A stretch of 64,000 bases of DNA from an uncultured Acidimicrobiia bacterium (GTDB lineage Bacteria > Actinomycetota > Acidimicrobiia > Spongiisociales > UBA5794), in assembly GCA_963792405.1 (NCBI GenBank), contig CAWBVU010000005.1, positions 355,668 through 419,667 on the forward strand, given 5' to 3'. The notes under the pieces were generated by a model that was given only the letters and a program-made list of their open reading frames with translations, made no database searches and was not told where the DNA came from. Both the position numbers and the translations under genes were made by a program. Position 1 is the stretch's first letter, and each line of letters opens with the position of its first letter. Positions 19,028 to 61,650 of this stretch are shown in pieces.

Positions 19028-19955
19028 TCAGGCGACCGGCCAGGTTTCGGCGACTTCGGGGGCGACTTCCTCGTGGGCACGCCTGGCGGCCCGGTCGGAG
19101 AGGTAGAGCCCGATCAGCACGAGGACCCCACCGATGATGATGCCCGGTTGGAGTTCCTCGTCGAGGAGGAGGAGCCCACCGCTGAGCACCATGAACGGGA
19201 CCATGTAGCCGATGAGCGACACGTTCGTCGCCGACACCTTCGTGAGCAGCCAGTACGAGAGCAGGAACGGCATGAAGGTGGCGAACACGGCCATCTCGAT
19301 CATCAGCCACCAACCCGCGGCGGAGACATCCGTCGGCAGCCCTTCCGTCACGAGCATGGCGACGACGAGCCAGATCGCGGCGATGGCGAACTGGAGGCCG
19401 GTGATCATGACCGGCTCGTACTCACCAGCGTGACGCTTGCCGAAGGCATTCGCGAACCCGATCGACACCACCGAGACGAGGCCGAGGACCCCTGCGACGA
19501 GAGGCCGTCCGCCCTCGCTGAGGCCCGAGTCCCCGGACAGTAGGAGGAACGCGACGCCGGAGAATGCGATGAACAGCGCGACGACCTTCGTCGCCGTCAG
19601 GGGCTCGTCGGGAAGCATGAAGTTGGCGAACACCGCCGTTGCGAGGGGGATGAGTGCTGCGATGAGGCCGACGAAGCCCGCCGATGCCTCGGCGTAGGCG
19701 AAGGTGAACAGCACGTACGGGATGGTCATGTTGAAGACCGCCTGCACCAGCCCGTACCCGAGGACGGTCCTCGACGGCAACGGTGTGCGCTGGACGATGA
19801 GGACGACCATCACCATCAGGGCGGCCAGCACGATGCGCACCCCGATGATGGTCCACTCGCCCACACCCTGGTCGAAGGCTGCCACGCGTCGCGATGCCGC
19901 CCGACGCCCATCCGAGTGCGGCGGCAACCATGGCGAGCCAGTAGATCGGGCGCAT
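19028..19955 (-). CDS. EamA/DMT-family transporter, frameshifted near 19885-19895
   Basis: TM1 (MRPIYWLAMVAAALGWASGGIATR) reads in one frame and the other nine TMs (ORF 19028..19927) in the +1 frame. This points to a 1-nt indel. Confidence 0.65.
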
Positions 19956-20014
19956 CAGGCGAGGCTACCGACACGGGTGCGCCGTGCGTTCCGGACACCC
20001 GGTGCTCCGCCCGA

Positions 20015-21313
20015 TCAGCTCTCGAGGTCGGGGTCCCATTCGTAGACGGGGCCGTCCTCCTCGTACTCGGGGACGCGGTCCTCGTCGCGGGTCATGATGC
20101 CCGACAGGCCCTCACCGAACTCGGTGCGTCCGGAGAGGAGGTCGCTGCCGTGGGTGACGACGAGCCGCCCGTACTTGCGGCGCAGCTCGTCCACCGAGGC
20201 GTCGAGGGCGCGGTACTCGATCTCCTTCGGGGTGCCACCCGTCGAGGTGGTGTCGTCGACTCCCATGGCGAGCTGCATCGGCTCCCCCACGGCGAGGCCC
20301 GAGGTGGAGATCCCGACGAGGGACGTCTCGTGCCTCGGGTACTCGTCGACGACCTTCTGCAGCAGCTTCGTGGCGATGTCCATGATCGCCCCGGTCGCGG
20401 CCGTCGGTGTGGGCATGGTCGCCGACCGGGTCACCGCCGACAGGTCGCCGAACCGCACGCGCACGGTCACGGTGCGCGCCGTGCGGTTCTTCGCCCGAAG
20501 CCGCTCGGCGACACGGTCGGTGAGACGTTGGAGGACGGGCACCAGCTCGTCCATCGTGCGGATCTTGGAGCGGATCGCGCTCTGGGCACCGACGGACTTC
20601 GCCCGCCGCTCCCGCGTCACGGGTCTGGGATCCTGGTTGTTCGCGAGGGCGTGGAGATGCCCTGCCGCCCCGGGGCCGAGCATGGCCGTGAGCGCATCGA
20701 GCGGCGTGTCGGCGATGTCCCCGATCGTCTCGAGCCCGTAGCTGCGGAGCTTGCGCTCCGTCACCGGCCCCACCCCCCACAGCAGCGACACGTTCAGGGG
20801 ATGGAGGAACGCCAGCTCCTCGCCCGGCTCGACGACGATCAGCCCGTCCGGCTTCGCCACCTGCGAGGCGATCTTCGACAGGAACTTGCGGGTCGAGGCC
20901 CCCACCGACACGGCGAGTCCCGTCTCGGTGCGCACCCTCTCCCGGATCGCCTCTGCGATCTCCCGCGGCGACCCGAAGAGGTGGACCGAGCCCGTGACGT
21001 CGAGGAACGCCTCGTCGATGGAGATGCCCTCGATGGCGGGCGTGAACGACTCGAAGATGGAGAACACCGTCCGCGAGTAGGCCGTGTAGGCGCCGAACGT
21101 GCCGTCCACGAGGATGAGCTGCGGGCACAGGGCCCTGGCGTCCACCATCCGCATGCCGCCGCGCACACCGAAGGCCCTCGCCTCGTAGGTGCACGACAGC
21201 ACCACGCCCGTGCCGACGGCAACGGGCTTGCCGGCAAGCGACGGATCCTCGAGCACCGCCACCGCGGCGTAGAACGCGTCGAGATCCGCATGCAGGATCC
21301 CCGGTATGTCCAT
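20015..21313 (-). CDS. dinB: DNA polymerase IV (Y-family)
   Basis: MDIPGILHADLDAFYAAVAVLEDPSLAGKPVAV, SIDEAFLDVTG and little-finger domain; 432 aa. Confidence 0.85.
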   Translation of the reverse strand: MDIPGILHADLDAFYAAVAVLEDPSLAGKPVAVGTGVVLSCTYEARAFGVRGGMRMVDARALCPQLILVDGTFGAYTAYSRTVFSIFESFTPAIEGISIDEAFLDVTGSVHLFGSPREIAEAIRERVRTETGLAVSVGASTRKFLSKIASQVAKPDGLIVVEPGEELAFLHPLNVSLLWGVGPVTERKLRSYGLETIGDIADTPLDALTAMLGPGAAGHLHALANNQDPRPVTRERRAKSVGAQSAIRSKIRTMDELVPVLQRLTDRVAERLRAKNRTARTVTVRVRFGDLSAVTRSATMPTPTAATGAIMDIATKLLQKVVDEYPRHETSLVGISTSGLAVGEPMQLAMGVDDTTSTGGTPKEIEYRALDASVDELRRKYGRLVVTHGSDLLSGRTEFGEGLSGIMTRDEDRVPEYEEDGPVYEWDPDLES

Positions 21314-21411
21314 GGCGCCATGGTGTCACACAGGTGCGACACGCGCCCGCGAAAAGGACTCCAGTCGGCTCCCGATCGGCGGCCTAGCGTCACGGGGGAA
21401 GGGAGGCACGA

Positions 21412-21792
21412 ATGGATTTCCAGATGATGCCGTCACTGCCCGCGTCCGACATCGGCCGCGCACGTGCGTGGTACGAAAGGGTGCTCGGTGTGACACCCGC
21501 CATGGAGGACACCGACGGATCACTCATGTACATGTCGGGCGACAGCGCGTTCATGGTCTACGAGTCCCAGTTCGCCGGCACCAACAAGGCGACCGCTGCA
21601 GGTGTCGTCGTCCGGGACTTCGACGCGGCAGCGGCGGCGTTGCGCGCCGCGGGCGTCGCGTTCGAGGACTACGACTTCGGCGAGGACCTCCGCACCGTCG
21701 ACGGTGTGATGACCGACGACGCCGGGAGGCGCATGGCGTGGTTCAAGGACTCGGAGGGCAACATCCTCGGCTTGGCCGAGAACCCGATGTAG
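21412..21792 (+). CDS. VOC/glyoxalase-family protein
   Basis: 126 aa with a glyoxalase/bleomycin-resistance fold pattern. Confidence 0.65.
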   Translation: MDFQMMPSLPASDIGRARAWYERVLGVTPAMEDTDGSLMYMSGDSAFMVYESQFAGTNKATAAGVVVRDFDAAAAALRAAGVAFEDYDFGEDLRTVDGVMTDDAGRRMAWFKDSEGNILGLAENPM

Positions 21793-21801
21793 CCCCCGCC
21801 C

Positions 21802-21990
21802 TCAGGACTCGTCGTCGAGGTCGTCGGTCCGCACCGTGCCATAGGTCGACTGCGACGCGATGAACGCGTCCGCGTGCTGGTTGCACACGGGACGATCATC
21901 GTCGTCGAGGGTCAACGCGGGACGATGGCACACATGGCAGGACTTCTTGAAGACGGGTTCGTCCGAGGTCATGCGCGGATCATCGGCCAA
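21802..21990 (-). CDS. Small hypothetical protein with a CxxC...C zinc-ribbon-like motif
   Basis: 62 aa (CHVCHRP...PVCNQH). Good GC3 codon bias. Divergent from the palindrome at 22030. Confidence 0.4.
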   Translation of the reverse strand: MADDPRMTSDEPVFKKSCHVCHRPALTLDDDDRPVCNQHADAFIASQSTYGTVRTDDLDDES

Positions 21991-22029
21991 TCAGCCTCCG
22001 GCTGCCAGACACATCCTCGGTCGGCATGA

Positions 22030-22043
22030 GGTGACTAGTCACC
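22030..22043. promoter_or_regulatory. Perfect 14-bp palindrome GGTGACTAGTCACC (candidate operator)
   Basis: Seen directly in the sequence. Lies in the 86-bp divergent intergenic region, 34 bp upstream of the DinB_2-like gene. Confidence 0.35.
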
Positions 22044-22076
22044 GACCAGCCCGGAGACTCCCGGTACGCTGATGCC

Positions 22077-22589
22077 ATGGACATCAGCGCTGTGTATCTC
22101 GACGCCTTCGGCCGTATCGAGGAGGACGTGGAACGGGCCGTCACCGGCCTCGACGGGGACGCCCTCGCCTTCCGGCCCGATCCGGACGCGAACTCGATCG
22201 GATGGCTCGTGTGGCACCTCACCAGGGTGCAGGACGACCACGTCTCCGAGATCGCCGGCCGCGACCAGGCCTACGTCGCCGATGGGTGGGCGGAGCGGCT
22301 CGGGCTGTCGCCAGACATCCACGACACCGGATACGGCCACACCTCCGACCAGGTCGCCGCCGTGCGGTTCGATGGCCCCGCCGACCTGCTCGCCTACCAC
22401 CGCGCCGTGGCCGGCCGCAGCCGCGAGTACCTCGAGACGGCGACGCCCGACGACCTCGACAGGATCATCGATGAACGATGGGACCCACCCGTGACCGTGG
22501 GTGTGCGGCTCGTCAGCGTCATCGACGACTCCCTCCAGCACGCCGGCCAGGCCAACTACGTCCGCGGCATCTGGGAACGCACCGCCTGA
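22077..22589 (+). CDS. DinB_2/DUF664 (mycothiol maleylpyruvate isomerase N-terminal-like) family protein
   Basis: WLVWHLTRVQDDH...H..D metal-binding pattern; 170 aa. Confidence 0.65.
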   Translation: MDISAVYLDAFGRIEEDVERAVTGLDGDALAFRPDPDANSIGWLVWHLTRVQDDHVSEIAGRDQAYVADGWAERLGLSPDIHDTGYGHTSDQVAAVRFDGPADLLAYHRAVAGRSREYLETATPDDLDRIIDERWDPPVTVGVRLVSVIDDSLQHAGQANYVRGIWERTA

Positions 22590-23150
22590 ACCCGCAGTAC
22601 CGAAGGAGGCCTCCCGCACCGCACTCCCCCCTCTGCCCTTCGGGCATCTCCCCCAAAGGGGAGAAGCGAAGAGAGGAGCGAGCGCAGCGAGCACCTTGGA
22701 TGTCTCTCCCCGCGGGAGAGACGCGGAGCGAAGCGACGCAGAGAGGGCCGCCCAACGATGAGGAGCGAGCGCAGCGAGCACCTTGGGATGTCTCTCCCCG
22801 CGGGAGAGACGCGGAGCGAAGCGACGCAGAGAGGGCCGCCCAAGGATGAGGAGCGAGCGCAGCGAGCACCTTGGATGTCTCTCCCCGCGGGAGAGACGCG
22901 GAGCGAAGCGACGCAGAGAGGGCCGCAGTACCGAAGGACGCCTCCCGCACCGCACTCCCCCCTCTGCCCTTCGGGCATCTCCCCCAAAGGGGGAGAGGAG
23001 CGAGCGCGGGCATCTCCCCCGGGGAGGGAGCAAAGCGGAGCGAGCGCCAGCGAGCACCATTGCTTCGTCTCTCCCCGCGGGAGAGACGCGGAGCGAAGCG
23101 ACGCAGAGAGGGCCGCTCCCTCGCAGACGAAGCGGTGCTGTGGGGAGCGG
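22590..23150. repeat. Composite hairpin repeat cluster B (includes ~63-bp tandem units x4)
   Basis: Same H1/H2/linker modules as cluster A. Positions 22670-22920 hold four tandem units (gaggagcgagcgcagcgagcaccttggatgtctctccccgcgggagagacgcggagcgaagcgacgcagagagggccgcccaa). Confidence 0.85.
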
Positions 23151-24294
23151 TCAGCCGGTGATGGTGGAGGCGATGGTCGTGCCGATCGCGACGTGGCCCT
23201 CGGGGTTGGGGTGGGGCCAGCCCGCCCACTTCTGGGTGCTGATCGGCTGACCACCGAGGTCGACCCAGACGACGTCGTCGCTCAGGCCCGCACGGATCGC
23301 CTCGTGGAGCTGGCCGAGGGCGAGGTTCATCTCGTCCTCGCACTCGCCGCCGACGGGTGACCACAGCGGTGCGAACCGTGTGCCGGCGAGCTGGTAGTAG
23401 CTCGTCCAGTAGATGTCGGCGTTGGTCCTCGAGGTGACCTCGTCGACGATCCGGCTGGTGGCGTCCGTGATGAATCCCTTGCGCTCGTCCAGGTTCCACT
23501 CCTCGTTCACGGCTCGCTGGCACACCTTCTTGTCGCCCGAGTCCGTGAATGAGAACAGCGTGTCCCTGGTGAGGCCGGTGATGACATCGACCCAGTTCGT
23601 CGAGTTGATGCCCGCCGTCATCACCACGACGTTCCACGTCGACGGGTCGGCGAGGCGGGCGATGTCGTCCACCTGGCTCGGGTGGCCGGCCGAACACGAG
23701 TCGGACCCGCCGTCGAGGACGTCACCGACCCCTGCGCCCGGGAAGGCGATGTTCACGTACCTGGGCGTCCACGCGGCGGGGAGCTGTGAGGCGACGGCCC
23801 GCTGCACGGTCGAACCGTACGAGTAGTCGTCGTCGCGGCAGACGGAGTCCTGGGTGAACCACTGGCGGGAGTAGCCGGAGGCGACCGAGTCGCCCGCGAC
23901 GATCACGTTCGGCACGCCCGGGGTGACACCCTCCCACGCGGTGACCCACTTCGACTCCCAGCCGTGGCGGTCCACGGCGCGCACCTCGAGGGTGGCCGCC
24001 GTCTCGGGGAGGGTCCGGGCGAACGACACCGTGGGGTTCACGACGGAGGTCGACACCGGCGTGCTCCCGTTCCATCGGTACTCGTAGCGGCGGATGCCGA
24101 GGTCCGTGTCGGCGTCGATGACGAGGTCGGCCTCGAGGAGGTCGTTGTGGCGCTGGGGGGAGACGAAGCTCGGCGGACACCACCACGGGACGGGTCTGCC
24201 CGTCGGGAAGGATCTCGGCAGGCAGGCGCACGGCAGCAACGGCAGGGCTGGCGAGCCCCATGATCAGGGCGGTGATGGCGATGGTGAGTACGCG
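23151..24294 (-). CDS. Secreted SGNH/GDSL hydrolase, frameshifted in a C6/G6 homopolymer (~24164-24169)
   Basis: Signal peptide VTRRVLTIAITALIMGLASPAVAA after GGAG plus a GTG start at 24294. The catalytic frame contains NVIVAGDSVASGY. The two frames join at ctcccccca. Confidence 0.6.
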
Positions 24295-24481
24295 GCGCGT
24301 CACGAATCGTCTCCGGAAGGTGCCGGGAAAGGGTACGTCACTGAGACGTACACCTTCCCCGAAAGGTTCCCCGGACCGCTTCAGTGGGCCCGGTCGCCGG
24401 CCGAAGAAACCGGGAGGGCGTGCGAGAACCCCGGTTCGGGTGCGCCTCCATATACTCGCCTGACGACCAGGAACAGGGGAC

Positions 24482-26609
24482 ATGCGACCACCACGCATCC
24501 GACGACCACGGCTCTCCGACCTGCTCACCCTCGCCGTCTTCTCGATGATCCTCACCGCCGCGGTGCTCTACTCGCCCGGGTGGACCGTCGGGGGGAGAGC
24601 GGAGGCCACCGCCCCCGTCGACCTCGCCAACGTCGCTGCATCGCTCCAACCCTTCATCCCCAAGCCGGTCCTCGCGGCGTCCGTGCCCGCGGGTGCCCAC
24701 GGTGTGGGCCTGGTCGACACCGAGCAGGGCGTCTGGCACCTCCGCACCCGCGACGGCGACCCCGCCTCGTTCTTCTACGGCAATCCAGGCGACTACCCGT
24801 TCACGGGCGACTGGGACTGCAACGGCACCGACACGCCCGGCCTCTACCGCCAGTCCGACGGGTACGTGTACCTGCGCAACTCGAACACGCAGGGCCCGGG
24901 TGAGATCAAGTTCTACTTCGGCAATCCGGGCGACTTCCCGCTGTCTGGCGACTTCAACGGCGACGGCTGCGACACCCTCTCCCTGTACCGGCCGTCCGAG
25001 CAGCGGATCTATGTGATCAACACGCTCGGGTCGAACGACACCGGCCTCGGTGAGGCCGAGTACTCGTACATCTTCGGGAACCCCGGTGACAAGCCGTTCA
25101 CCGGCGACTTCAACGGCAACGGCATCACCACGGTCGGCCTGCACCGTGAGTCGACGGGCTTCATGTACTTCCGCAACACGAACACCCAGGGCGTGGCCGA
25201 CTACCAGTTCTACTTCGGCGACCCCGGCGACCGCCTCATCGCAGGCGATTGGACCGGTGCGGGCGAGGACTTCCCCGCCGTGTACCGGCCGTCGAACCGC
25301 ACCGTGTACATGCGGTTCTCCAACACGCAGGGCAATGCCGACGAGTTCTACCAGTGGGGCGAATCGCCCTACATCCCCGTGGCGGGGTTCTTCGGGCCGC
25401 TCGACAGCGGCGTGTCGGTGAGCGTCTCGGGCGCCCCGACCGAGCTCAAGTACGCCATCGAGTCCTTCTACCAGGACCAGCAGGCGGCCCCGCACATCCC
25501 CGAGGGGCTGCGCACCAACCTGCTCGGCCTCCGCGACTATCCGAAGGTGAAGATCGCCTCCGGTTCGGCCACCACCTCCACGGCGTACGGCAAGGGCGTG
25601 GCGGTGGCCACCGTGAACGGCGACACGTTGCTGGCGGTCACGGACAACGGCTGGGAGTGGCGCATCGTCGGGAGCGAATCCGTTCGGGCTGGGCCGCACC
25701 CTGTACTACGGCGGGAACGCCCGCCACGTGGCGATGATCGGCACCGACTGGCAGCAGTCCGGCTCCACATGGCCGACCGACGTGACCCGCACCAACGCCG
25801 ATTCGCTGCACCTCTACACGGTGAACCCGGTGGCGGGGGCGGGCGCCGTCTCGGGCTTCCCGCGCTCGACGTACATCACCACCCCGTTCGGCTACACGCG
25901 TGTCGCCAAGACCACGGTCGACGGCGGCCCGTCGAACACCGTCACCTCGCTCCGGATGGAGACGGGCCTCCCGGTGGAGGGCTACTTCCTCATCGGCATG
26001 GGCAGCTTCAACCCTGGCGCCCCTCCGGGGTTCTCGGACCTGGTCGACGCCTACGGCGGCTTCCCCTTCCTCGTGCCGTACGAGCCCCTCGGTGGCGTGC
26101 CGGCGGTGGGCGACACCTTCCTCAATGGCACCGAGGCGATCGCCTGGGCCCGTGAGCGCCAGAACTCCCCCCACGGCGGGTCGGACCGCACCCTCAACCA
26201 GGGTCAGATGATCAAGGCGGCGCTGGCGACGATCCAGCCGCTCGGGATGTCCCAGATCCCCAACCTGCTGTCCATCATGGACGGGTTCGTGTACACGGAC
26301 CTGTCGATCGACCAGGTCCTCACCTTTGCGGCCACCGTGTACACGGTCAACACCGGCGCGATGCCGACCATGACACCCCAGGACCTCATCAACTCGGGAC
26401 ATGTGGCGCCGAACAAGATCGTCCCGACGCACGGCCCGTACAACCAGAACCCCGGCACGCTGCCCAACGTGCTGATCAAGGGCTGCCTGTACACACCGGA
26501 CGGTGTCACCTTCGGCTACTCGCTCACCGCGCAGAACAAGGCGCTGTTCACCGACCTCGCCGACGGCGTCCTCGACACCGCACCCTGGATCTGTGACGAC
26601 GGCACCTAG
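24482..26609 (+). CDS. LCP (LytR-CpsA-Psr) family glycopolymer ligase with N-terminal TM anchor and FG-GAP-like repeats; frameshift ~25675
   Basis: TM anchor, then five FGNPGD...GDW/FDCNGTDT blades paralogous to the surface protein. The LCP domain reads in the +1 frame (25728..26609): FLIGMGSF...FLNGTEAIAWARERQ. Confidence 0.65.
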
Positions 26610-26663: not shown

Positions 26664-27245
26664 ATGCGCTCGCTCGCCCTCATCCTCATGCTCATGCTCG
26701 TCACCGCCTGCACCCAGCAGGCGGACGACGACGTCACCGACGCCACCCTGACGACGACCTCCACAGCCGCGGGCGCCACGACGACCACCGGTGAATCGTC
26801 CACGACCACGACCGGCGGGACGACCACCACCACGACGCGCCCGTCGGGCGGCACGACCACCACCACCCGGGCGACGACGACGACCTCCTCGCCGTCGACG
26901 ACCACGACCACCATCCCCGCGGACAACCTCCCGCCCACCGTGGAGATCCTCGCCCCCGCCAACCTGTCCTCCCACACAGCCGCCTACGACGCAGCCCTCG
27001 GGGACTTCGGCACCTACCTGACGCTTCGAGCGACGGCGAGCGACCCCAACGGTGACCCCGTCGTGATCCGCTGGTCCGCCTCCACCGAGGGCGGACTCGG
27101 CACCGGCACCGAGATCACGGCGTGGTTCTCGACCAATGGCTCGGACGCCACCCAGCCCATCATCACCGCCACCGCCGTCGACCGGTGGGGCGTCACCTCC
27201 TCCGCCTCGGTCAACATCATCGTCTGGATCCCCTCCGACACCTAG
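26664..27245 (+). CDS. Lipoprotein with Thr-rich linker and Ig-like domain
   Basis: Signal peptide with lipobox LVTAC. 50% Thr linker. C-terminal beta-rich domain. Confidence 0.6.
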   Translation: MRSLALILMLMLVTACTQQADDDVTDATLTTTSTAAGATTTTGESSTTTTGGTTTTTTRPSGGTTTTTRATTTTSSPSTTTTTIPADNLPPTVEILAPANLSSHTAAYDAALGDFGTYLTLRATASDPNGDPVVIRWSASTEGGLGTGTEITAWFSTNGSDATQPIITATAVDRWGVTSSASVNIIVWIPSDT

Positions 27246-27535
27246 GCAGGAAGAGCGAGCACAGCGAGCCCTGCCTGTCTCTCCCCGCGGGAGAGACGCG
27301 GAGCGCAGCGACGCAGAGAGGGCCGCACCCTCGCAGACGCGGAGCGAAGCGACGCAGAGAGGGCTTCCTGCTTTGTCTCTCCCCGCGGGAGAGACGCGGA
27401 GCGAAGCGACGCAGAGAGGGCCGCAGTTCTGAGACCTCTCGAAGGACGCCTCCCGCACCGCACTCCCCCCTCTGCCCTCCGGGCATCTCCCCCAAAGGGG
27501 AGAAGGAAGCACAGGGGTCTTGGATCGGATGTGTG
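27244..27535. repeat. Composite hairpin repeat cluster C
   Basis: H1-H1-H2 modules, immediately upstream of the DUF559 gene. Confidence 0.85.
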
Positions 27536-27554: not shown

Positions 27555-27905
27555 ATGCACGATCGAGAACAGCTGCGCAGCTTCGCGAAGGAAATGCGGT
27601 CGGATCCGACCCTCGGCGAGCGGATCTTGTGGGACGAGCTCCGAGCGAGACGACTCGGCGTGAAGGTGCGTCGCCAGCATCCCGTCGGCCCGTTCATCCC
27701 CGACTTCGTCTGCTTCGCACGCCGCCTGGTCATCGAGGTCGACGGCGACTCCCATGAGGATCCGGAGCGGGATGCACGCCGCGATCAGTGGTTCCGGGAC
27801 AACGGCTGGCGTGTCCTGCGGTTCACAGACGACGAGGTGATCGACGAGCTCGACATGGTCCTCGACACCATCTGGCACGCCCTCCACGCCAACGAGGAGA
27901 AGTGA
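27555..27905 (+). CDS. DUF559 endonuclease-domain protein (Vsr/PD-(D/E)xK-like)
   Basis: 116 aa with the DUF559 hallmark ...RQHPVGPFIPDFVCF...LVIEVDGDSHE...WRVLRF. Confidence 0.75.
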   Translation: MHDREQLRSFAKEMRSDPTLGERILWDELRARRLGVKVRRQHPVGPFIPDFVCFARRLVIEVDGDSHEDPERDARRDQWFRDNGWRVLRFTDDEVIDELDMVLDTIWHALHANEEK

Positions 27906-45350: not shown

Positions 45351-45398
45351 GTCGCCCCACCTCAAGATCCATGGGAAATCGGCCGATGTCGGTACGGT

Positions 45399-45569: not shown

Positions 45570-45593
45570 GCCACCTGCCTCCCTGACCTCGAC

Positions 45594-46440: not shown

Positions 46441-46460
46441 CCCGACCAGGAGCACGGCTG

Positions 46461-48300
46461 ATGGGGGGCTTCGCCGTCGTCATCGACTGGGACCGCCCCG
46501 TCGACCCCCACGCCACCGACCCGATGATGGCCCTCGTCCCGCACCGGGCCACGGGCGGCACCCGCACCCACGTCACGCCCCATGCCGTACTCGCCGAGGG
46601 CCGTACCACGCACCAGGTGGATGGCGGCCCATGGGAGGTCGCCACCCTCGGACCGCTGGCGATCGTCGGCGACATCCGCCTCTTCGACACGGGCCGCCTC
46701 CGCGCCGCGGCAGGCGGCAGTGCGGCCACCGACGGCCTCGACGACCGCCACCTCCTGCTCGCCGCCTACCGGCGCAGGGGCATCGGGTTCCTCGACGCCG
46801 TCGACGGAGACTTCGCCTTCGTCATCTGGGACGACGACTGAACGCAGTGTCCTCGCCGTCAGGGACCGCTTCGCCGTCAAACCGATCTTCTACGAGGAGA
46901 CAGCCACCGGCATCCGCTTCACCTCGGAGGTCAAGCAGCTGGCGGCGACATCACTGCGACCCCCCGAGCCTGACCCGTTGTCACTCGCCGAGTACGTCGA
47001 CCTACGACTTCCGGGAGAAACGCCGCACGTTCTTGACCGGGATTCAGCGCATCCCTGCATCCGGGCGATCATCGCCGCATGGCCACGCGCCCCGGGCGCT
47101 GCGCTACTGGGACCCGACGCCGCCAACCGCCAGCGCATGAGCCATCGAGCCTTCCCCACCTCTTCCGCGAGCACCTCATCGCCGCCGTCGATCGGCGGCT
47201 CGAGACCGTCCAGCCACACGGTCAGCCAGCTCTCGGGCGGTCTCGACTCCTCGTCCATCGCTGCAGCTGCGGCGATCCTCGCATCCCGCGGAGAGCCCCT
47301 GGCGTTCACCACCGTGTCGGCTGTGTACGACTTCCCGTCGATCGACGAGTCGGGGTGGATCGACGACATCGTCGCCAGCCAGCCCTTCCCCCACCACGAC
47401 TTCGTCCCCGAGGTCGCCGACATCGAGCAGTTCGATGCCGACATGTGGACGGTCGATGGACCGCTCGTCGACCCCATCCGCGACATGAAGCACGTCACCG
47501 CTCGAATCGCCGTCCAGCTCGATGCACCCCTCGCCTGACCGGGGCAGGAGGTGACCACCTTCTCTATCAGGCCCGCTACCTGGGCGACATCCTGCGATCC
47601 GGCCACCATCCGCCGCTTCGCCCGGGACACGACCGTCGTGCACGCGCGATGGTCCGGGATGGGGCTGCTGCCGACCCTCTCTGCCCCGGTACGACAGGCC
47701 ACACCGCCGCCGCGTCCGCTCCATTGGGCGAGGGGTCCGCCGCTGCCAGGAGCCGAGCATGCTGGGCAATCCCTCTTCACCGGGGCAATCGAGCAGGCAT
47801 CGGAATCGCGTCGGACGAATCCGAGCACCTCGGCTTTCGCTCAGCAACACAGAACGCCATCGCATCGGATCTGCGCGAACCGCTGGCTCGCATGGACCAA
47901 TGAGACGACAAGCGATGGTCTTTGGCGCGTCATGGAGTCGATCTCAGCCATCCGTATCTCGACCGGGACCTCGCACAGTTCGTCGTTGTCGATCGATCCG
48001 CTCGATCTACCGTTCGACGGCCGGTCGAAGACGCTCGTCCGCCAAGGCTTCGCGGACACGCTCCCGGGCTCGGTTCTCGGTCGTCGACTCACGACATTCG
48101 CCGATGAGTACATGCAGGAGGCGCTGCGTTCCCAGCGCACGGCAGTACCGGGAGTCGATTCGCCGAGCATGCCGCTGCCTGCGGCCCCGGCCTCATCGAC
48201 GAGGACGCCTACCGAAGCGCACTCAGCGAGTTCGACAGCGCGTGCTCCCGCCCAGAAGATGTGCACGCCTCTGCGTTCCTGGCGGGCCATGGCATGTGAT
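46461..48300 (+). pseudogene. Third, diverged Asn-synthetase-like (lasso cyclase-like) gene, heavily frameshifted
   Basis: MGGFAVVIDWDRPVDPHA...DGDFAFVIWDDD. Then RDRFAVKPIFYEE, SGGLDSSSIAAAA, HLLYQARYLGDILRSG and HPYLDRDLAQFVV lie in at least five different frames. AGGAG RBS. About 35% identity to the C copies. Confidence 0.5.
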
Positions 48301-48399
48301 GGTTGACGCTTGGCGCATACAGGGCCGCCGACGACGTAGGATCCCTGCCCATGGAGTCGAAACCCAAGAGTGCAGGATCGACGCCGCGGGCATACACGC

Positions 48400-49502
48400 C
48401 GCCCCGGCTTCGCCACTTGGGGCTCATGTCGGCGGTCACTCGGAAGACTGGACCTAGGGAACGACGGCCAACTGCCTCGACCCAAGCGGCCAGCCCTAGG
48501 CGCGCCCACCCGACGAGGGTCAGGCTGCGATGACCTCGCCAAGAGGTTGCGATGCGCGCGAACGCCGAACGACCCATCCGGGAGAGTCGTCGGCTCCGTC
48601 GGCACCGTCACGGTCCGGATCGACCCCGACGACACCGAGCGCAGGTCCCATGTCAGCGCCACGGCGTCACCGATCCCCAGAGTGTCCGACAGCACGATCG
48701 TGTCGTCGAGCTGCTCGGCGAGGCCGGCCAGTTCCACCGGTGACCGCACCGTCTTGAGCCGATCCAACAGCGCGAACATCAGCTCCTGCTGACGGGCCAC
48801 TCGCACGGCGTCACCGGTCTCGGCCTGGAACCGCCACTCGCCGTCGACGAGTTCCTGCGTGCGCCGGGACCGGATGTAGGCGAGGGCGTGCTCGCCGTCG
48901 ATCATGCGAGCACCCTGCGGGCACGAGGTCGTAGCCTCCCTCACGCAGGGCGTTTCCGAGCAGATCTGCACGCCGCCGACCGAGTCGACCATCTCGACGA
49001 GCGCATCGAACTTCATCAGGGCGAAGTGGTCGATCGGTACGCCCGAGAAGTCCTCGACCGCGACGGCCACCAGCTCGGCGCCGTTCACCTCGCCCGCACC
49101 CCTCCAGGGTGCGGTCCAGCTTCGTCTCACGACCGGTGCACGGGTCGACGACGACCAGTCGCGGGGAAACGAGACGATCGTCGGTGACCGTTCCCCTCCT
49201 CGGGGAGGAGGTAGAGCAGCACGGCGTCGGCGAACGCCGTCACCTGCTTGTGTAGTCGTTGGCGACGTCTCGTCGGAGCCGACCACGAGGACGGATTGGT
49301 ACGTCGTCGGGGGAACGGTGGCGGTGGCTCCCGCCAGCGTGGTCGTCGACGGAAGGTCTCGACGTGCCTCCTGAAGATCGAAGTCGACACGCTCGACCGA
49401 GTTCCATGCCACGAGTGCCCTCACGCCTTGGTATCCCACGAACGGCGACGAACACGGCCAGAAGGCACCCACTGCAAGCAGGATCTTCCTGCGTCTCGAC
49501 AC
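48400..49502 (-). CDS. LCP (LytR-CpsA-Psr) family protein (C-terminal boundary uncertain)
   Basis: N-terminal TM anchor, then SVLVVGSDETS...IVSFPRD...GVPIDHFALMKF...GEHALAYIRSRR. ORF 47841..49502 runs past the domain, probably through spurious read-through. Possible compensating frameshifts around 49250. Confidence 0.6.
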
Positions 49503-49595
49503 CTCGTCCCCTCGCTACCGACCTGAGAAAGGTAGGAGGAGGACCCGCATAGGCGTCTCCTGACCTCATTCGCGGATCTTGAAGCTACCGCTGCG

Positions 49596-52748: not shown

Positions 52749-53871
<1,123 letters not shown>

Positions 53872-53875
<4 letters not shown>

Positions 53876-54486
53876 GCCGGGGCGATCTCCGCGGCTGGAT
53901 TGCCTGCGACGGTCGCACCCGCCCTGACATTCCGGATGACAACCGCGCCGGCACCGATCGTCGCGTCGTCACCAACGTGTACGCCCGGGAGGACCGTGGC
54001 TCCCGCACCGACGAGCACCCGTCGGCCGACCGAAGCACCGCCGGTGACCGTGGCGTGCGGGGCGACGTGGGAGAAGGCTCCAATCTCGACGTCGTGCTCG
54101 ACGATCGCGCCGGAGTTGACGATCGCTCCCTCTCCGATCGAGGCATCACATTGGATCACCGCTCCTGCGAGCACCACGACCCCTGCGGCCAGGGACGCGT
54201 GGCTGGACACCGACGACCATGGGTGCACCACCTGCAGCCATCGGTTCGTCGTGGTGGACGACACCCGTTCCCGAACCGCGTTGTCACCGATCCCATGGAT
54301 GAGCTCGCACGTCAGGGTTTGGACGAGGCCCAGGTCCCCGATCACGGGTACCGACAGCACGAACGCGCCGTCAAGGGCGGGGTCGTCATCAATGGCACCT
54401 GAGACGGCCACGCCCAGCGTTTCGACGGCATCGAGAACGACCTTCGCATGGCCTCCTGCCCCCACGATGACCGGGCCCTCAGCCAT
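53872..54486 (-). CDS. Sugar N-acetyltransferase (PglD/NeuD-like hexapeptide-repeat)
   Basis: N-terminal Rossmann-like [17 protein letters not shown] plus a left-handed beta-helix of hexapeptide repeats. Confidence 0.75.
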
Positions 54487-55140
54487 CGGGTGTTCCCTCG
54501 AACTTCGGCATCGTCGCCTCCCCCTGCGCCGAGATGCCCGACATGGAGAGCACCCGGCCCACGGTCATGAACAGGATCTTGAGATCGAGCCACACGCTGC
54601 GGTGGTCAACGTACCAGACGTCGAGCGCCAGCCGCCGTTCCCACGTGGTGTCGTTGCGGTCGAGGACCTGGGCCAGCCCCGTGATTCCGGGACGGACCTC
54701 ATGGCGGCGTCGCTGGTCCTCCGAGTACAGCGGCAGGTACTCCATCAGCAGCGGACGGGGCCCAACGAGGCTCATGTCGCCCTTGACGACATTCCACAGC
54801 TCCGGGAGTTCGTCGAGACTCGTCGATCTCAGAAGGCGCCCCGCAGGCGTGAGGCGGTCGGCGTCCACGACTGTCGCAGCACGGAGCCATCATCGTGCGG
54901 AACTTGTACAGGGTGAACGACTTGCCGAGATGGCCTGGCCGTTCTTGTCGAAAGAGGACTGGTCGGCCCATCGTCGTCCGGACGAAGGCAGCGACAACGA
55001 GGGCCACAGGAGTAAGAACGCCCAGGACAGCCGAGGCAACGATCAGGTCGAGCGTCTCGCTTCAGACGCTCCTCCGACGAGGGAGTCCAGCAGGCATTCG
55101 ATCTTCCGGCCACGCCCCGGCTCGGTGTGCGGCGACCCAT
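54479..55140 (-). CDS. Phosphoglycosyl transferase (PglC-like small bacterial sugar transferase), at least 2 frameshifts
   Basis: Hand-joined sequence [46 protein letters not shown]...YKFRTM // [38 protein letters not shown], spread across three frames. Confidence 0.55.
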
Positions 55141-56231
55141 CGCCTCCCCTTGGCGCCCAGACTCCGGCGCTCCGAGGCGTGAGCTCCGCCATTCGGAGCA
55201 TTGCCGACTCGAGGTGCTCGGGCTCGACGACGATGCCCAGCTTCGACTTCACGACGAGGTCTCCGACCTCGCCGGGCGCATTCGTGATCACGGGAAGCCC
55301 TGCGGCCATGTACTCGAACAGCTTGTTCGGGCTCACGCCGAATCGAAACAACGGGACATCGGCAAGCACATGCACCCCGATCGGGCATCGGCGAGGACGT
55401 CGGGCATGTCTGCTTTGGGGACGGGCTGGACGAACTCGACATTCCCGATCTTCTCGAGCCTTGCACGCTGAGCAAGGGCCTCCTTCACGACCCCATCGCC
55501 AACGAGCACGACCCGAATGTGAGGTCCCGTCGCTTCGAGCTCCGCGGCGGCATCCAGGAGGAGATCCAGGCCATTTGCAGGACCGTGCGCCCCGGCGTAC
55601 ATGAACGTGACCGGAAGCGTGTCCTGATCCGGCTCTACGACTGCGAAGCGATCGATGTCTGCCCCGTTCGGAATGAACAGGACTCGCTTCTCCTCGCCCA
55701 CAATTCTCCGGATGACGAACTCCGAGCCTCGTGCGAGAACGACGATCGCATCGGCTGACCGATACAAGTACCTCTCGAGCCGGTGAGTACCCGGTACAGC
55801 AGCGAATTCTGACTCAGTCGTCCCATGTCGACCAGTATCTGAGGCCACAGGTCGCGGAATCTCGAGGACGAATGGCACACGCCGCAGCCGCGCAACCGCC
55901 AAGCCGGCTGCTGCCGCAAGGAGATGTGGCGAGGAGGCGTAGACGATGCTCGGCTTCGGTCCGCTAGGCCCGTGACCAGCGATCCGATTGCGTACGACAC
56001 CCAGTTCAGGATCCGAGCGACGCCGTTCGAGGTGTATGGCGACGTCCACACGAATCGGAATCGTGGGTCATCGGTGACCGTGCGCCGCCGGTCGAGCAGA
56101 TTGCGGTCGGCGGCGATGATACGCACGTCCCAGCGATCGCTTAGCGCGCCGAACATCTCGACGTGGCGCGTACCCCCCGGAGCTCCATCGGGCACGGCGA
56201 AGTGGTTGAGCACGAGGACTCGTTCAGCCAA
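55100..56231 (-). pseudogene. GT4 glycosyltransferase (WbuB-like), at least 4 frameshifts
   Basis: N-terminus MAERVLVLNHFAVPDGAPGGTRHVEMF (ORF 55635..56231). Middle and C-terminal segments fall in ORFs 55333..56049 and 55043..55375 (SPNKLFEYMAAGLPVI). Confidence 0.55.
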
Positions 56232-58228
56232 GGGTGACCTCTGCTGTGTGGTGGTCTCCGCTCACGTCCACCTCGAGCCGCGCACCGCGTGCCCGGAACG
56301 TGACACTGTAAGCAGGACCGTCCCGAGGGGGCATCCCATCTGGCGTCCAATCGAACCCGCTTGGGCCGCCGTCATCGGTGCCGTAGGTGATCGCCCATGC
56401 GGGCCTCCAGTGGCCATAGGTGTCGCTCCACCAACCGGCCATCGGCTCGGTCGCTCCCCTCGAAGGCGCCTCCCAGGATGCACCGTGGAGTCTCAGGGTC
56501 CCGCACCCTTCGCTCGAGCGCGAACATACCCTCCCCGACCGGAATGAGATCGTTCACGTCTGGGCCGATTTGAAGCGTCGTTTCGGAATCGGCCACAGGC
56601 CCTCCGTCAAGTCCCGAACCTGGACTGATCCGTAGTCGGAGACGCTCACGGTCCGCACAACCCGACACGGGGAGTCCGGCGATGAGTAGGCATCGTGGAT
56701 TCCCCACATCACGATGCCACCGCATAGCGGATTGGCTCTCCGACGACGCCATTGGCTGATGTGAGCCATCGGAAGGCACGGTGTGGCTCCAATTGCTCAG
56801 CGCCTGCCACCCGCAGGACGTTGTGGCTCGCCGAACCGCGGAAGTGGTTGCGAACGGTGATGTCCCCGTTGTAGGTCCCGGTCCCGGCGTCGCCGAGGAT
56901 GACCGTATCTCGGTACACGACAGACACGGACGACAGGTCGGCGTGACCATGCGAGGGCCCGCTTCCCATCTTGAGCCACACGATTGTCGACGCACGCCCG
57001 ACGCGCGCGATCCCTGCACCGAGGTCGAATCCGTTGCCTTCGGCTGGCTCGGCGTCTACGGGTACCCCCACGCCTGCATGCCACGCGACCTCGTCGAAAC
57101 GTGCCCGCTGTCCTCTGGCGACCCCGTTCCTCCCAGCGCCAGCGCCAGAGCGACGGACCCAGCGAGCCCAGTGGGATCGCCCGCCGTTGTCAGGACCCTG
57201 CCCTCGTCCCAGTCGCCGTACTGGGGAATGTATCCGGCGTTGACGCCGAGACGGGACAGGAACTGGGCGGCGGACACCATCTGCCTATCGACGAGGCTCG
57301 GTGATGCTCCGAGGAGGTGGCGCGTGATGAGCATCTCAAGGACGAATCGGTGATAGGAAACCGAGTCCTCGACCATCGACCCGTCGACCCTCATGTGTCG
57401 TCTCAGTTGGGCTCCGAAGATGCGGTCCCCGAGCGAACCCACCGCTCACGGCCGAACGCCATACCAAGGGCGATGAGCCCGAGCGCATCACCGAGCAGGT
57501 GGTTGTTGCGCATGGTGCTCACGGTGTAGGGAAGGTCCGCAATGAGGTGCCGCCCGGCGTGGTAGAGATGAAGGTCCATTTCCTCGCGCTGCGGCGACGA
57601 GATCGCCTCACCTGCGAGAGCGATCACCTGAAGCCACGCGATCGCGCGGAGCGCGATCTCGAGGTTCGAGTACCAGTGGACTCCGACCTCGGGTGGATTG
57701 GCGTTCAGCCACGAAGCCAGTTGGGCATCGAGCGCATCCGAGTACCGAGGATCGGTCGGTGCAAGGTGCACGGCCCGTGCGAGTACCACGAGGTGGCGAT
57801 GCCGACCGAGCTCCCAAGCCCATTTCACGTCACCCGCTCGCCGGTCGGAACGAATGTCGATCTGCCACCAGTGGTCCGGTCGCCCAGTGCCCTTCGCTCT
57901 CGACCACCGCGTGCCAATCGGGAACCTCCGCCACCGGGATCCTCCGCCCGAACAGCAGGGCTCCCTCGCGAAGGATCAGATCGGCTTCGGCGAGGTTCCT
58001 CTGTGCGATGCTGTCCGGCACGCTGGCAGGGATACCCAGCGGCATGTGAAGGGGGGGAACACGTCTGCGAGGAGGAACCACAAGCCTGAAGACCGCATCA
58101 TGGCCCCCGAGCCGCTTCGAGCCCTCATAGGCCGCACGCAGCGGCGCCCCAGTGCCCAGCGCCCTCACGTCACCCCATGCTCGCCGGAGCGTCGAACCGC
58201 TTCCCCGATCCGCACCCGTCATGACCAA
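56224..58228 (-). pseudogene. Heparinase II/III-like family protein, multiply frameshifted
   Basis: Segments in ORFs 57830..58228, 57403..57828 (WELGRHRHL...SWLNANPPEVGVHWYSNLEIALRAIAW), 57056..57442, 56709..57071 (GSGPSHGHADLSS) and 56224..56442. Confidence 0.5.
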
Positions 58229-60344
58229 GTGAGGTCGATCGCCGCACCCGTCATCATCGACTCGATCGCCGCGATCGCCGTTCGCGACGTGACGAATGCC
58301 GATTCTGCCAGCGGGGCAGCGTCCCGCGTCCCCTCGATCGCCTCCCTGAACACAACGAACTCGGCCGCGTGGCCCTTGTCCGCCGGCTTAAACTTCGTCG
58401 TCTTCACCGACGTTGGGCTGCGGAGCGTGAGGGAGCGATAGTCATCGATTTCTGCGCTCCTGTCTCCTCGGCGAATGTCGACACGTTCCTTGCTCGACCC
58501 CTTCGGCGCACCTGCCGTGTACACGATCACCGCCTGGGAGCCCGACGGGTAGTCGAGTGTGATGGTGAAGTTCTCATCGAGCAGCAGTTCACCGACACCC
58601 GACCCGATGGCATACACCCCACGAGGGCTCTCACCAACGATCGCATTGCACGTATCGATGAAGTGACACCCCTCACCGAGCAGCCGCCCACCCTGGCGCC
58701 GGTCCTTGAGCCAATGGCCTTCCGGCAGTGATCCCGCATGGACCCGGTAGACGATCTGGATCGGGCCGCCGGTGCCAACGAATTCCCTGGCCGCCTTGAC
58801 TGCTGGAGACCACCTGCGATTGAAGCCGACCATGAGCACTGCTGTCGATTGGCTCCGGCGTCGGCCACGTGGCTGAGCTCCTCCTCGGACAGGGCAAGCG
58901 GCTTCTCGCAAAACACATGCTTGGCCGCGCCAAGACTTTGGGTCACATAGTCAGCGTGTGAGTCGTGACGTGACGCAATGAAGACAACCTTGGTCTCGTC
59001 GTCTTGCAGAACATCGTCGAAGTTGGTTACCGCGGACGCGGATCCGTACCGCTGCCCCAGTGCGACCGACGAGACGCCGCTTGCTGATACAACCGACCTC
59101 CAATGTGAGAATCCAGCCGCGCTCGCCGCGGGAACAAGAACCTCATCAGCGAAGCGACCGGCCCCGATAAGTGAGCTTGCCAGGCTGTCCTTCTGAGCCT
59201 TCCGAGGCCCAAGCTTGATGGCAGACGCTTGCGAAGCCTGGTCCGCCTTGTACTCCAACAGGATGCCCAGGTACGGGTCCTCGCCCTTGAAAGTCTCGAA
59301 CGCTTTGACTGCGTCGTCAAACGCGAACCTGTGGGTTATCAGATCACGAACCTGAAGCTTGCCATCGGATATGAGGTTTACGACTGTCTGAAGATTGCGC
59401 TTGATCGTCGGCGGTTCGTAGCCAACCGGGTAGTCGATTCCGAGCCTCTCATAGGTGGGGTCGTACCTTCCAGCTCCGTACGGGCGCGATATTCTCACCG
59501 CCAGTTCCTTCTCGTACATGAGCCGCCGATCGAGCTCAAGCCCAACGTCTCCGACGACGACAATCGTTCCACGATCGCGGGCGAGCTGCGCCGCCAGCTC
59601 CACGGGGGCCGACGAGGGTGTGGCAGCTGCCACCACCACAGCGTCGACGCCGCCCCCTTCTGCCCACTCTCGGATCGATTCGGCCATTGATGCGCTATCG
59701 AACGCCTGAAACCCCGCGTCGTTCGCACGCAGGACCTTCCAGGGATCGATGTCGGTCCCTGCGGTGCGGTACCCGAATGCCGCAGCCAAGCGAAGTGTCA
59801 GCTGGCCAATGAGTCCGAGGCCGATGACCGCCACCGAGCTGCCCAGGCTGAGATCGCACAGACGGAGCCCGTGAAGACCTACGGCAGCGATCGCAGAAAA
59901 GCACCCCTCTTCGTAGCTCACGGAACTTGGCAAGAGCGCACACATGTTGGATTGGACAACCTGGAGTTCGGAGTGGCCCGAGCCAGCAGTGACAACCCGG
60001 TCACCTTCGCGGAGGCCCTCCGCTGCTGATCCCGCCTCGGTGACAACACCGCTGGCCGAGTAGCCAACGGGGATCGACTCTTCGAGCCTTGAGCGAACGG
60101 CCTCCGCGGTGGATCGAAGGCCGTCAGACCGAGCTCTGTCTATCACAGCGCGAACGAGGTCGGGACGCGCCCTAGCCTTTGTGAGCAGAGATGCAGACGC
60201 GAGCTGCCGCGCTGCCTTCTCCGTACCACTCGAAATCAAACTCGATCGTACCGATACTGCCACGCCGGTGGACTCCGGCCTCGCTGGGAGCCCAGAGGCC
60301 AGTGACAAGGCGCCGTCTGACACAGATAGAACAAGTGACCTCAT
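58219..60344 (-). CDS. Bi-domain oxidoreductase (Zn-dependent alcohol dehydrogenase domain plus Gfo/Idh/MocA domain); one frameshift near 58900
   Basis: N-terminal MDR/ADH fold with a Rossmann motif (SVAVIGLGLIGQL). A second Rossmann motif (VVFIASRHDSHADY...CEKPLA) and the Gfo/Idh/MocA C-terminal domain (VLMVGFNRRWSP) lie in ORF 58219..58911. Confidence 0.6.
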
Positions 60345-60431
60345 CGCACTCCCCTCAAGGTGCTGAGGCTAGACAAGTCGCCGTCCTCAGCTCCGTGAAT
60401 CGGCACCCCTCGACTCAGCATTCGTGCTTTC

Positions 60432-61650
60432 TCACCCAGCCTTGGCGGCTGCGGACCGAAGGACGCGTACGTATTCCGATGCGACTGATACCCAATCAGG
60501 CGGAGGACTCGGAGAAGGGACTCGCCGACTCCCGGCCAGCGTTCGCACTATCGCAAGACCAAGCGCCTCTGCATCCCCCAGCGAATACAGATGAAGGCCC
60601 TCGTCTGATCGGTCACGAACCGGGAGGTCAGACGCCACGACCGGTACATGCACGGCTCGGGCCTCGTGAACACCTAGGTCGAAGGATTCAAGACGGCTTG
60701 TGCTCACGAGCAGGTCGCACTCATGGAACTCTCGGGGCATATCGGAATGGCACACGAAACCCCCAAACTCGACCAGACCCTCAACTCCAGCACCTTTGAC
60801 GCTTGCCAGGACTCCCTCTTGCTCGGCTTCGCTGAAGCCTCCCAGTAGCCGCACCTCAACCCGCCCCTTGTGTGCCGATCTCACGTGTGGAAGAGCCTCC
60901 AGCAGCTCGATGAGGTTCTTGTGGGGGGAGCTGTTGCCAATCCAGAGTATGCGGGCAACTCCCTCTTTCGGGCTGGCACACGAGTCCGGCAGGAACACGT
61001 CATCGATACCGTTCGGAATCAGATGCAACCGCTCGCGAACACGAGGTTCGCGCACAGCGACGAGATCACACGCGTATGCACTCACGCACACTCCGACGGC
61101 CCCAGTCTTCAACGTGCCCAACAGCAGCGCACGCTGAAGACGTCGTTTTAGCTTTGACGACCAAGGCGCACGCCGATCAACCACGAAGTGATGAGCGTTC
61201 TGGACAACCACGGCTTGAGGCACGCCAGAACAGACCAGACCGAATCCTCCAATGCCGAGAATGACATCGCACTCGGCTTCACGTGCGATCGCTGCCAGCC
61301 TTACTTGCTCCCACCACGGTCGCAGATAGGCGAGTCGCCAACCATCCCACCCTGACAAATGTCGCACACGACTGTTCACTTGCGCTTGAAGGAAGAAGGT
61401 CGTCCTTCACTAGCACAACGACATCAACTCCTTCGATCTTGCACAGCCCACCAAGTAGCCCTGCTGCGACCACCAGACCACCTCCGGGAGCCACCGACAG
61501 AGCGTTCATGAGAATGCGCAGCGGCTCTCCAGCCCCCCCGTGAGCACGGAGGGCCTCGGGGACCTCCGACAGCCGTTCACACGCGTGGTTGTGGTTTCCT
61601 ATCACTAGCTTCACCCCATCTGCTGTGACCGCCGCACACGGGACTACCAA
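60432..61650 (-). CDS. GT4-family glycosyltransferase; one frameshift near 61340
   Basis: N-terminus in ORF 61279..61650 (KLVIGNHNHA...RILMNALSVAPGGG). C-terminal GT4 domain in ORF 60432..61379. Confidence 0.6.

Follow-up and report, generated by a model that had tools for sequence, protein, structure and literature searches.

Clustered one-base frame switches in cell-surface sugar and lasso-peptide genes of an Acidimicrobiia contig

Genes of the window and their frame switches

The window (the whole stretch of 64,000 nt that was analysed) is part of an Acidimicrobiia contig and carries cell-surface sugar genes and a duplicated lasso-type cluster (Table 1). Approximately 50 one-base insertions or deletions were found in at least 18 genes, including four switches in a second LCP gene that had not been listed before. 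The original prediction was of pervasive +/-1 frameshifts in at least 15 genes. All 13 of its gene-level claims held, each listed gene being backed by ortholog, Pfam-coordinate, PDB or paralog evidence, and the switches were usually found within 10-50 nt of the predicted positions. The frame switches are confirmed as real features of the sequence as written.

Table 1. Position (nt of the window), strand and frame switches of the genes and stretches discussed
Feature	Position	Strand	Frame switches or content
Control stretch	1-19860	.	No frame switch; ~18 genes
EamA transporter gene	19031-19964	-	One +1 switch at ~19860-19882
SGNH/GDSL hydrolase gene	23154-24306	-	+1 switch at G6 run 24155-24160
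Long N-terminal domain + LCP (LytR_cpsA_psr) domain gene, LCP1	24512-26606	+	+1 switch at ~25676
Wzz/BY-kinase (polysaccharide co-polymerase) gene	28916-30462	+	~29524 (-1), ~29787 (+1), 30067-30111 (+1), ~30300 (+1)
ABC exporter gene	30462-32262	-	+1 switch at ~32147, surplus G in GTC-G-GTC-GTC
RmlD-like reductase gene	33416-34273	+	Three +1 switches: 33708-33715, ~34170, ~34200
Lasso-type cluster copy 1	35642-40968	+	Extra bases 36673, 36691, 37258-37259, 37447, 37484; base missing at 39447 (cyclase gene)
Lasso-type cluster copy 2	40969-46290	+	T missing at 44314 (cyclase); extra G at 45905 (methyltransferase-like gene)
Third AsnB-like (cyclase paralog) gene, AsnB3	46458-48340	+	127 clean codons, then at least 10 switches from 46839
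Second LCP gene, LCP2	48540-49511	-	Four switches within 150 nt: ~49235, 49184, 49160, 49090
Clean stretch within affected region	49629-54495	.	UDP-glucose dehydrogenase, PglF-like dehydratase, DegT aminotransferase, PglD-like acetyltransferase; all intact
PglC-like phosphoglycosyl transferase gene	54482-55100	-	Two +1 switches, ~54868 and ~55050
GT4 glycosyltransferase gene, GT4a	55046-56261	-	At least four switches
Heparinase II/III-like gene	56300-58200	-	Six switches
ADH_zinc + GFO/IDH/MocA bi-domain oxidoreductase gene	58222-60368	-	One -1 switch at ~58860
GT4 glycosyltransferase gene, GT4b	60435-61650	-	One +1 switch at ~61344

Relative to orthologs and homologs, the reading frames of the EamA, SGNH, RmlD, BY-kinase and PglC genes were disrupted; homolog and HMM coordinates ran on consecutively across frames, and a +/-1 correction restored full-length colinear matches. 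When EamA and SGNH were checked against orthologs in related genomes, the orthologs were single-frame and the window genes were split. Orthologs of EamA (L001-L003) aligned over residues 1-35 in one frame (19964-19860) and over the remainder in another (19870-19061). The signal peptide and first 50 amino acids of SGNH were in a different frame from the body, the ortholog N-termini (VRPAGGFLPDGDERP...) matching window frame r0 and the body r2. This join had been predicted at a C6 run at 24164-24169; it does lie at a run of six, a G6 run, but at the position given in Table 1. The LCP frame of LCP1 was without a plausible start after the upstream stop at 25614, and the N-terminus of the ABC exporter was in a different frame. 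The BY-kinase domain was spread over three frames compared to BceF/CapB in the PDB (54-132, 152-214 and 215-266, respectively), with the TM2/proline motif in a fourth segment. RmlD target residues 20-118 were in one frame and 116-273 in the next, with two further switches near the end of the gene.

The third AsnB-like gene, for which at least five switches had been predicted, has at least twice as many; GATase_7 HMM positions 25-85 were in one frame and 86-122 in the next, and two possible stops (47901 and 48297) are avoidable by other placement of the shift. Three-frame PDB searches with AsnB3 and GT4a gave no matches, and the switches of both genes were instead worked out by comparison with the cyclase paralog, from Pfam coordinates and by reading all three frames directly. 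The predicted minimum of four switches in GT4a was borne out, with Glycos_transf_1 HMM positions 16-100 in one frame and 108-150 in another. In the heparinase-like gene, expected to have at least four, any single frame gave only fragments of both Pfam domains. PglC matched PDB residues 7-74 and 79-203 in two frames, with another switch upstream, and the predicted switches in the bi-domain oxidoreductase and GT4b genes were likewise supported. The ORF of LCP2 remains open, with its conserved motifs in other frames. Catalytic motifs survive, spread over several frames, in BY-kinase (Walker A, A' and B and the Tyr cluster), RmlD (YxxxK), AsnB3 (SGGLDSS and SHPYLD) and PglC (DE dyad).

A genome-contig scan with the DinB protein, whose gene lies at the edge of the affected region, gave a closest locus with 80% amino acid identity (MAG SZUA-258), where synteny was limited to DinB, EamA and SGNH. 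A metagenome scan with the ABC exporter gave a best match of at most 40% identity. The DegT protein was 100% identical to database protein P0001, which is the window's own protein, and the next best match had 81% identity; no synteny was found in the DegT homolog neighbourhoods. When the window was compared by blastx with the ORFs of every locus retrieved, EamA was the only gene with split hits, and sequence of the same species was not found in the searched collections.

Size, context and distribution of the indels

Alignment of the two lasso copies, which are 97% identical, placed their indels to the base. The copies had been predicted to be frameshifted at different places, and every lesion was found to be private to one copy; the first four genes of copy 2 are intact and most of that copy is clean. 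There were nine indel events between the copies, eight of 1 nt, one of 2 nt and none of 3 nt or more. The dN/dS ratio was 0.21 overall and 0.22-0.28 in the indel-bearing genes. The copies therefore appear to have diverged under purifying selection, an argument of only moderate weight because a brief recent neutral phase is hard to detect.

No in-frame stop was found in approximately 20 kb of frame-corrected coding sequence of the affected genes. With 40-47 neutral indels and an indel:substitution ratio of 0.1-0.33, 3-14 nonsense codons would be expected, and the probability of finding none is 1e-6 to 0.05; the highest ratio that we found reported for a bacterium is approximately 0.35 (PMC8717266). 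Insertions outnumbered deletions, roughly 29 to 17 overall and approximately 22 to 4 up to 47 kb.

The switches had been described as lying mostly in short G/C runs, which did not hold: a G/C run of at least 4 was no more than 10 nt away for 20% of the sites and for 23% of random positions. Sites resolved to the base lay in runs of 1-2 nt, and of the 26 G/C runs of 6 or more just one was affected (the SGNH G6 run); tracts of 8 or more are absent. The sites thus show no association with G/C runs, and this speaks against classic homopolymer-length error. No shared sequence motif was seen at the base-resolved sites, and an error linked to methylation motifs was accordingly unsupported.

The sites were strongly clustered. 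The absence of switches in the first 19.86 kb has a probability of about 3e-10, and the index of dispersion (2.8) was reached in none of 20,000 simulations. The genes of this control stretch include those for WecG, two GT4 enzymes, an NTP-transferase, an epimerase, a UDP-glucose dehydrogenase and a 1047-aa repeat protein. All same-strand frame changes in its codon-usage Viterbi path were 4-bp stop/start overlaps, in a method that overlooks frame segments of less than approximately 40 codons and performs poorly at 47-62 kb, where the GC content is lower. Moreover, ten ORFs of the control stretch gave full-length single-frame Pfam matches (e.g. 1-168/168, 1-240/240 and 1-353/353), and no split alignments to L001/L004 orthologs were found there. 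A suspected shift at 14.85-14.97 kb proved to be a separate tiny bS22-like gene. A second clean stretch of 6.6 kb extends from 48.3 to 54.9 kb, apart from the LCP2 patch at 49090-49240. The patches hold 3-27 indels per kb, with up to four in 150 nt and pairs 18-37 nt apart in the densest; they comprise the second half of both the BY-kinase and the RmlD gene, the B2 region of lasso copy 1, AsnB3, the core of LCP2, and the span from PglC to heparinase. Switches per gene ranged from 0 to at least 10, a spread that would also be expected from genes dead at different times and in that respect tells against an artefact.

Origin of the indels

The genes are probably intact in the organism, and we infer that the contig contains patches of residual 1-nt indel errors from a partly corrected noisy-read consensus. 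An artefact of this kind should leave almost only 1-nt indels, without nonsense codons or larger deletions, as was found; the extreme local indel densities and the source of the window, a single 451-kb contig, were also counted in its favour. Residual frameshifts after polishing are well documented in long-read assemblies (10.1101/2021.08.23.457338; PMC8812927; PMC9262707), and residual assembly indels are an already known kind of problem. However, errors concentrated in homopolymers, as expected of nanopore R9, 454 and Ion Torrent type data, were not found, and the lack of a homopolymer link, unlike typical residual errors of these platforms, counts against the artefact. Nor was the error rate roughly uniform along the contig. 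The original prediction had preferred random indel error to ordered decay. Indel error does fit better (no nonsense codons, indels of 1-2 nt, insertion excess, preserved motifs, dN/dS of 0.21), but the errors are clustered rather than random. Clustering without a link to G/C runs means that the model must be one of patchwise poor consensus or polishing, not of a uniform error rate. A noisy-read (long-read or hybrid) consensus would have been corrected only in part, leaving well-supported stretches clean (1-19.9 kb, 49.6-54.5 kb and most of lasso copy 2) and poorly supported ones rich in indels. The likeliest reason for the patchiness would be that reads support strain-variable or repeated segments poorly or ambiguously. 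Each such indel would shift the frame and lead gene callers to fragment or fuse genes.

Genuine pseudogenes are an unlikely origin, although the distribution of the switches would suit a surface-glycan and lasso island under relaxed selection, in which genes were lost at different times and then gathered more indels while used genes stayed intact. There are no switches in the DinB, UGDH, PglF-, DegT- and PglD-like genes or in all of 1-19.9 kb, and 3 to at least 10 in AsnB3, heparinase, GT4a, BY-kinase and RmlD, unlike a uniform error rate; decay commonly strikes accessory loci for glycans and secondary metabolites, and the substitution:indel ratio between the lasso copies (approximately 155:9) is in the normal range. 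Against decay stand the lack of nonsense codons, the retention of all conserved motifs, and the dN/dS of the indel-bearing lasso genes, which does not approach 1 as it would under relaxed constraint. Moreover, no indel reached 3 nt where size was measurable and insertions were in excess, whereas indels in real bacterial pseudogenes are deletion-biased, with a mean of 18.7 nt per deletion (PMC6054270). Four indels fall within 150 nt of an otherwise undamaged LCP gene, and the dense patch at 54.87-58.86 kb begins inside PglC and stops inside the oxidoreductase, not at gene borders. It is very improbable that the indels are real and recent, the product of an indel-only mutational burst that struck dispensable genes for surface glycans and lasso peptides in a natural population of Acidimicrobiia before substitutions accumulated; error-prone synthesis during break repair would be a possible cause of such a burst, and the DinB gene lies at the edge of the region.

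Another form of artefact would stem from population heterogeneity instead of read noise: two or more co-existing haplotypes of hypervariable island genes would have been merged into one consensus, with out-of-frame chimeras arising from indels chosen without phasing. This origin is improbable. Many affected genes belong to typically strain-variable classes (GT4, heparinase-like, BY-kinase, lasso), yet core EamA and SGNH are also affected, and two GT4 genes and the WecG gene at 0.7-7 kb are clean. Several opposite-sign pairs are closely spaced, e.g. +1/-1 and -1/+1 in LCP2, but most shift runs are of the same sign and not compensating (+1, +1, +1 in RmlD and +1, +1 in PglC). Two haplotypes might even account for the 97%-identical lasso copies, which would then be no true tandem duplication. 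Biological use of the frame changes, by programmed ribosomal frameshifting, transcriptional slippage or phase variation at simple repeats, is already effectively refuted and has next to no chance of being correct. One site does lie in a G6 run; however, 25 of the 26 G/C runs of this length or longer are unaffected, the orthologs of EamA and SGNH are single-frame, the sister copy is without the shift at each lasso site, the base-resolved sites have no motif in common, and up to 10 shifts per gene are incompatible with recoding.

Consequences and comparison with known systems

Annotation of the 451-kb contig as it stands would split or fuse at least 18 genes and distort genome completeness and pseudogene counts, and two loci, the tandemly duplicated lasso-peptide cluster and one for a bacillosamine-type glycan, would be mistaken for dead. 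The example shows that errors of this type may occur in sharp patches with no relation to homopolymers, so that little can be concluded from one clean stretch about the sequence next to it. Were the lesions real, accessory loci would have decayed in an unusual way, by indels only.

Phase-variable contingency loci in surface-glycan genes switch by slipped-strand mispairing at long homopolymer tracts. As in the window, glycosyltransferase and capsule-type genes carry +/-1 shifts in these loci; in contrast, the window has no long tracts, its sites lie in runs of 1-2 nt (with the one G6 exception), and there are many shifts per gene. The decaying loci of leaf-nodule Burkholderia symbionts (PMC6054270) also have several frameshifts per gene and uneven counts, and there too accessory functions are affected. 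Unlike those loci, the window is free of nonsense codons, lacks a deletion bias and, where size could be measured, has no deletions of several nucleotides or of 3n; purifying selection is apparently still visible between the duplicated lasso copies. Long-read and hybrid (meta)genome assemblies with residual indels (10.1101/2021.08.23.457338, proovframe; PMC8812927, Polypolish; PMC9262707) differ in that the window has no concentration of sites in homopolymers, has more insertions than deletions and shows sharp patches, with approximately 20 kb and 6.6 kb fully clean. They resemble the window in that 1-nt indels break genes that, once corrected, translate into full-length conserved proteins, in that there is no other damage, and in having one large contig as source. 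In such assemblies errors remain where sequence is repeated or hard to map, and the two nearly identical lasso copies may be compared with such places.

Frame switches in individual genes

A six-frame codon-usage Viterbi path was calculated for the window, and each claimed gene was then tested with independent evidence (see table). After 19.9 kb, many same-strand frame changes were found away from gene boundaries. In total, at least 18 genes were affected, at about 50 sites, confirming the original prediction of at least 15 frameshifted genes. The SGNH switch was indeed at a 6-nt run, but this run (G6 at 24155-24160) was 9 nt off the coordinate claimed.

Genes with frame switches and other features of the window
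Feature	Position	Observation
EamA		residues 1-35 in one frame, remainder in another (three orthologs)
SGNH		signal peptide and conserved LPDG..RP segment in frame r0, body in r2 (orthologs)
LCP1	24512..26606 (+)	+1 shift near 25676; LCP frame without usable start, carries on upstream domain
BY-kinase		kinase domain over three frames, target residues 54-132, 152-214, 215-266 (three-frame PDB query); proline-rich TM2 motif in fourth segment
ABC exporter		canonical N-terminus out of main frame; join ~32147
RmlD-like		one frame matching target residues 20-118 (Pfam positions 3-94), another 116-273 (Pfam positions 92-247); C-terminal RPLDVRLDS and GAEALLGM segments in two further frames
Third AsnB (cyclase paralog)	46458..48340 (+)	GATase_7 positions 25-85 and 86-122 in two frames; at least 10 switches (comparison with lasso cyclase)
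LCP2	48540..49511 (-)	four switches within 150 nt; absent from original prediction
PglC		PDB residues 7-74 and 79-203 in two frames; one more switch upstream
GT4a, heparinase-like, oxidoreductase, GT4b	GT4a 55046..56261 (-); GT4b 60435..61650 (-)	Pfam domains broken at frame borders; three-frame translations readable through
Dense patches	29.5-30.3, 33.7-34.2, 36.67-37.48, 46.8-48.3, 49.09-49.24, 54.87-58.86 kb
Lasso-type duplication	35642-40968, 40969-46290	5.3 kb, tandem, 96.9% identity
Small lasso ORF	40072-40245, 45393-45566	same in both copies
Pgl-like genes	49629-55100	adjoin UDP-glucose dehydrogenase gene
Intergenic modular repeats	18564-19017, 22592-23129, 27241-27520, 27889-28455, 32976-33367, 35236-35712, 40969-41039	units of about 41, 57, 74, 88 bp
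Repeat within 1047-aa ORF	8756-9859	321-bp unit x 3.4 (96% match)
1047-aa ORF and LCP1 N-terminal domain	7161-7717 (557 bp), 24704-25257	76% identity, inverted
Lysine/arginine-rich ORF	14890-14982 (-)	tiny; followed by G+C-rich hairpin
Insert between DinB and SGNH	21346-23151	~1.8 kb, relative to closest relative

Gene content and the lasso-type copies

The G+C content was 60-73%, dropping from ~0.72 at 36-46 kb to 0.60-0.66 at 48000-64000. The nearest relatives were uncultured Acidimicrobiia. The best DinB locus in the genome collection scan was in the MAG SZUA-258 (80% amino acid identity), and the best DegT aminotransferase in the protein collection, beyond one 100% identical entry, was 81% identical. 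Genome, metagenome and protein collections yielded no sequence of the same species. The insert between DinB and the SGNH gene held three small ORFs and one array of the intergenic repeats. These repeats occurred in both orientations, with copies up to 98-100% identical and palindromes such as TCTCTCCCCGCGGGAGAGA, and are similar to REP or MITE elements; their first array was directly upstream of the first frameshift. The lysine/arginine-rich ORF (MGSLIKKRRKKMSKHKYRKRIKANRHKRKKK) resembles actinobacterial small ribosomal protein bS22.

The affected region encoded two LCP ligases, BY-kinase, ABC exporter, RmlD-like, PglF-, PglE (DegT)-, PglD- and PglC-like, GT4 and heparinase-like proteins and the duplicated lasso-type cluster; the biology under the frameshifts is ordinary and probably intact. 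The PglC-like product matched N,N'-diacetylbacillosaminyl-1-phosphate transferase structures (E 1e-50), which together with the Pgl-like gene set points to a putative bacillosamine-type sugar pathway in this member of the Acidimicrobiia.

The lasso-type cluster comprised NTP_transf_5 nucleotidyltransferase, PqqD (B1), transglutaminase-like B2, P-loop HPr-kinase-like, AsnB-like cyclase, small ORF and methyltransferase-like genes. By aligning the copies, nine indel events could be located at base resolution; eight were of 1 nt and one of 2 nt. Every one was private to one copy, with an open frame in the other; the copies were frameshifted at different places as predicted. The last gene of copy 1 was cut short by the duplication junction. 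Divergence between the copies was mosaic, with dS values between 0 and 0.2, a pattern suggestive of gene conversion; the tandem pair may otherwise be a misassembly of two haplotypes. The small ORF (MKAYRTPVLVELGTMSHVTRKSGRKRD...) had a leader motif similar to YxxPxLxxxGxxxxxTx, with Asp seven residues past the putative cleavage site. From its sequence, it is a candidate for the lasso precursor, in which Lys would be unusual as the first core residue.

Distribution and source of the frameshifts

The sites were not mostly in short G/C runs as originally proposed: 20% had a run of at least 4 within 10 nt, compared to 23% of random positions. Base-resolved sites had run lengths of 1-2, and 1/26 G/C runs of 6 or more was affected. 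No switches were found in 1-19,860 (P about 3e-10, given the rate across the region), where ten ORFs had full-length single-frame Pfam matches, or in 48.3-54.9 kb outside the LCP2 patch, where four genes (49.6-54.5 kb) were intact. Shifts were mostly -1 in the GT4a/heparinase patch and mostly +1 upstream of 47 kb. Of the random indel error proposed originally, indel error is favoured with some confidence, but not the random spread (index of dispersion 2.8, matched in 0/20,000 simulations).

In favour of real recent pseudogenes are the clustering by gene, which uniform error would not give, and the lack of homopolymer association, unexpected under common error types. They are nevertheless unlikely: approximately 20 kb of corrected coding sequence contained no in-frame stops, whereas 3-14 nonsense codons would be expected from neutral decay that left 40-47 indels, at indel:substitution ratios of 0.33-0.1 (the top reported bacterial ratio found was about 0.35; PMC8717266), and the lasso copies had a dN/dS of 0.21, with values of 0.22-0.28 for their indel-bearing genes. 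A strain-mosaic artefact is distinctly improbable as the source of the frameshifts, and recoding or phase variation is hardly credible; the remainder falls to causes outside these four.

Patchwise consensus error is the probable source, given the absent stops, the low dN/dS and the indel spectrum, and because all catalytic motifs were intact, LCP2 was otherwise undamaged despite its indel density, and the 54.87-58.86 kb patch started within PglC and ended within the oxidoreductase, away from gene borders. Patchy read support or polishing, documented for repeats and metagenomes (PMC8812927; 10.1101/2021.08.23.457338; PMC9262707), could reconcile such error with the clustered, homopolymer-independent sites. 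Real pseudogene indels are deletion-biased and long, with a mean of 18.7 nt per deletion (PMC6054270), in contrast to the insertion-rich indels in the window, all of 1-2 nt where their size could be measured.
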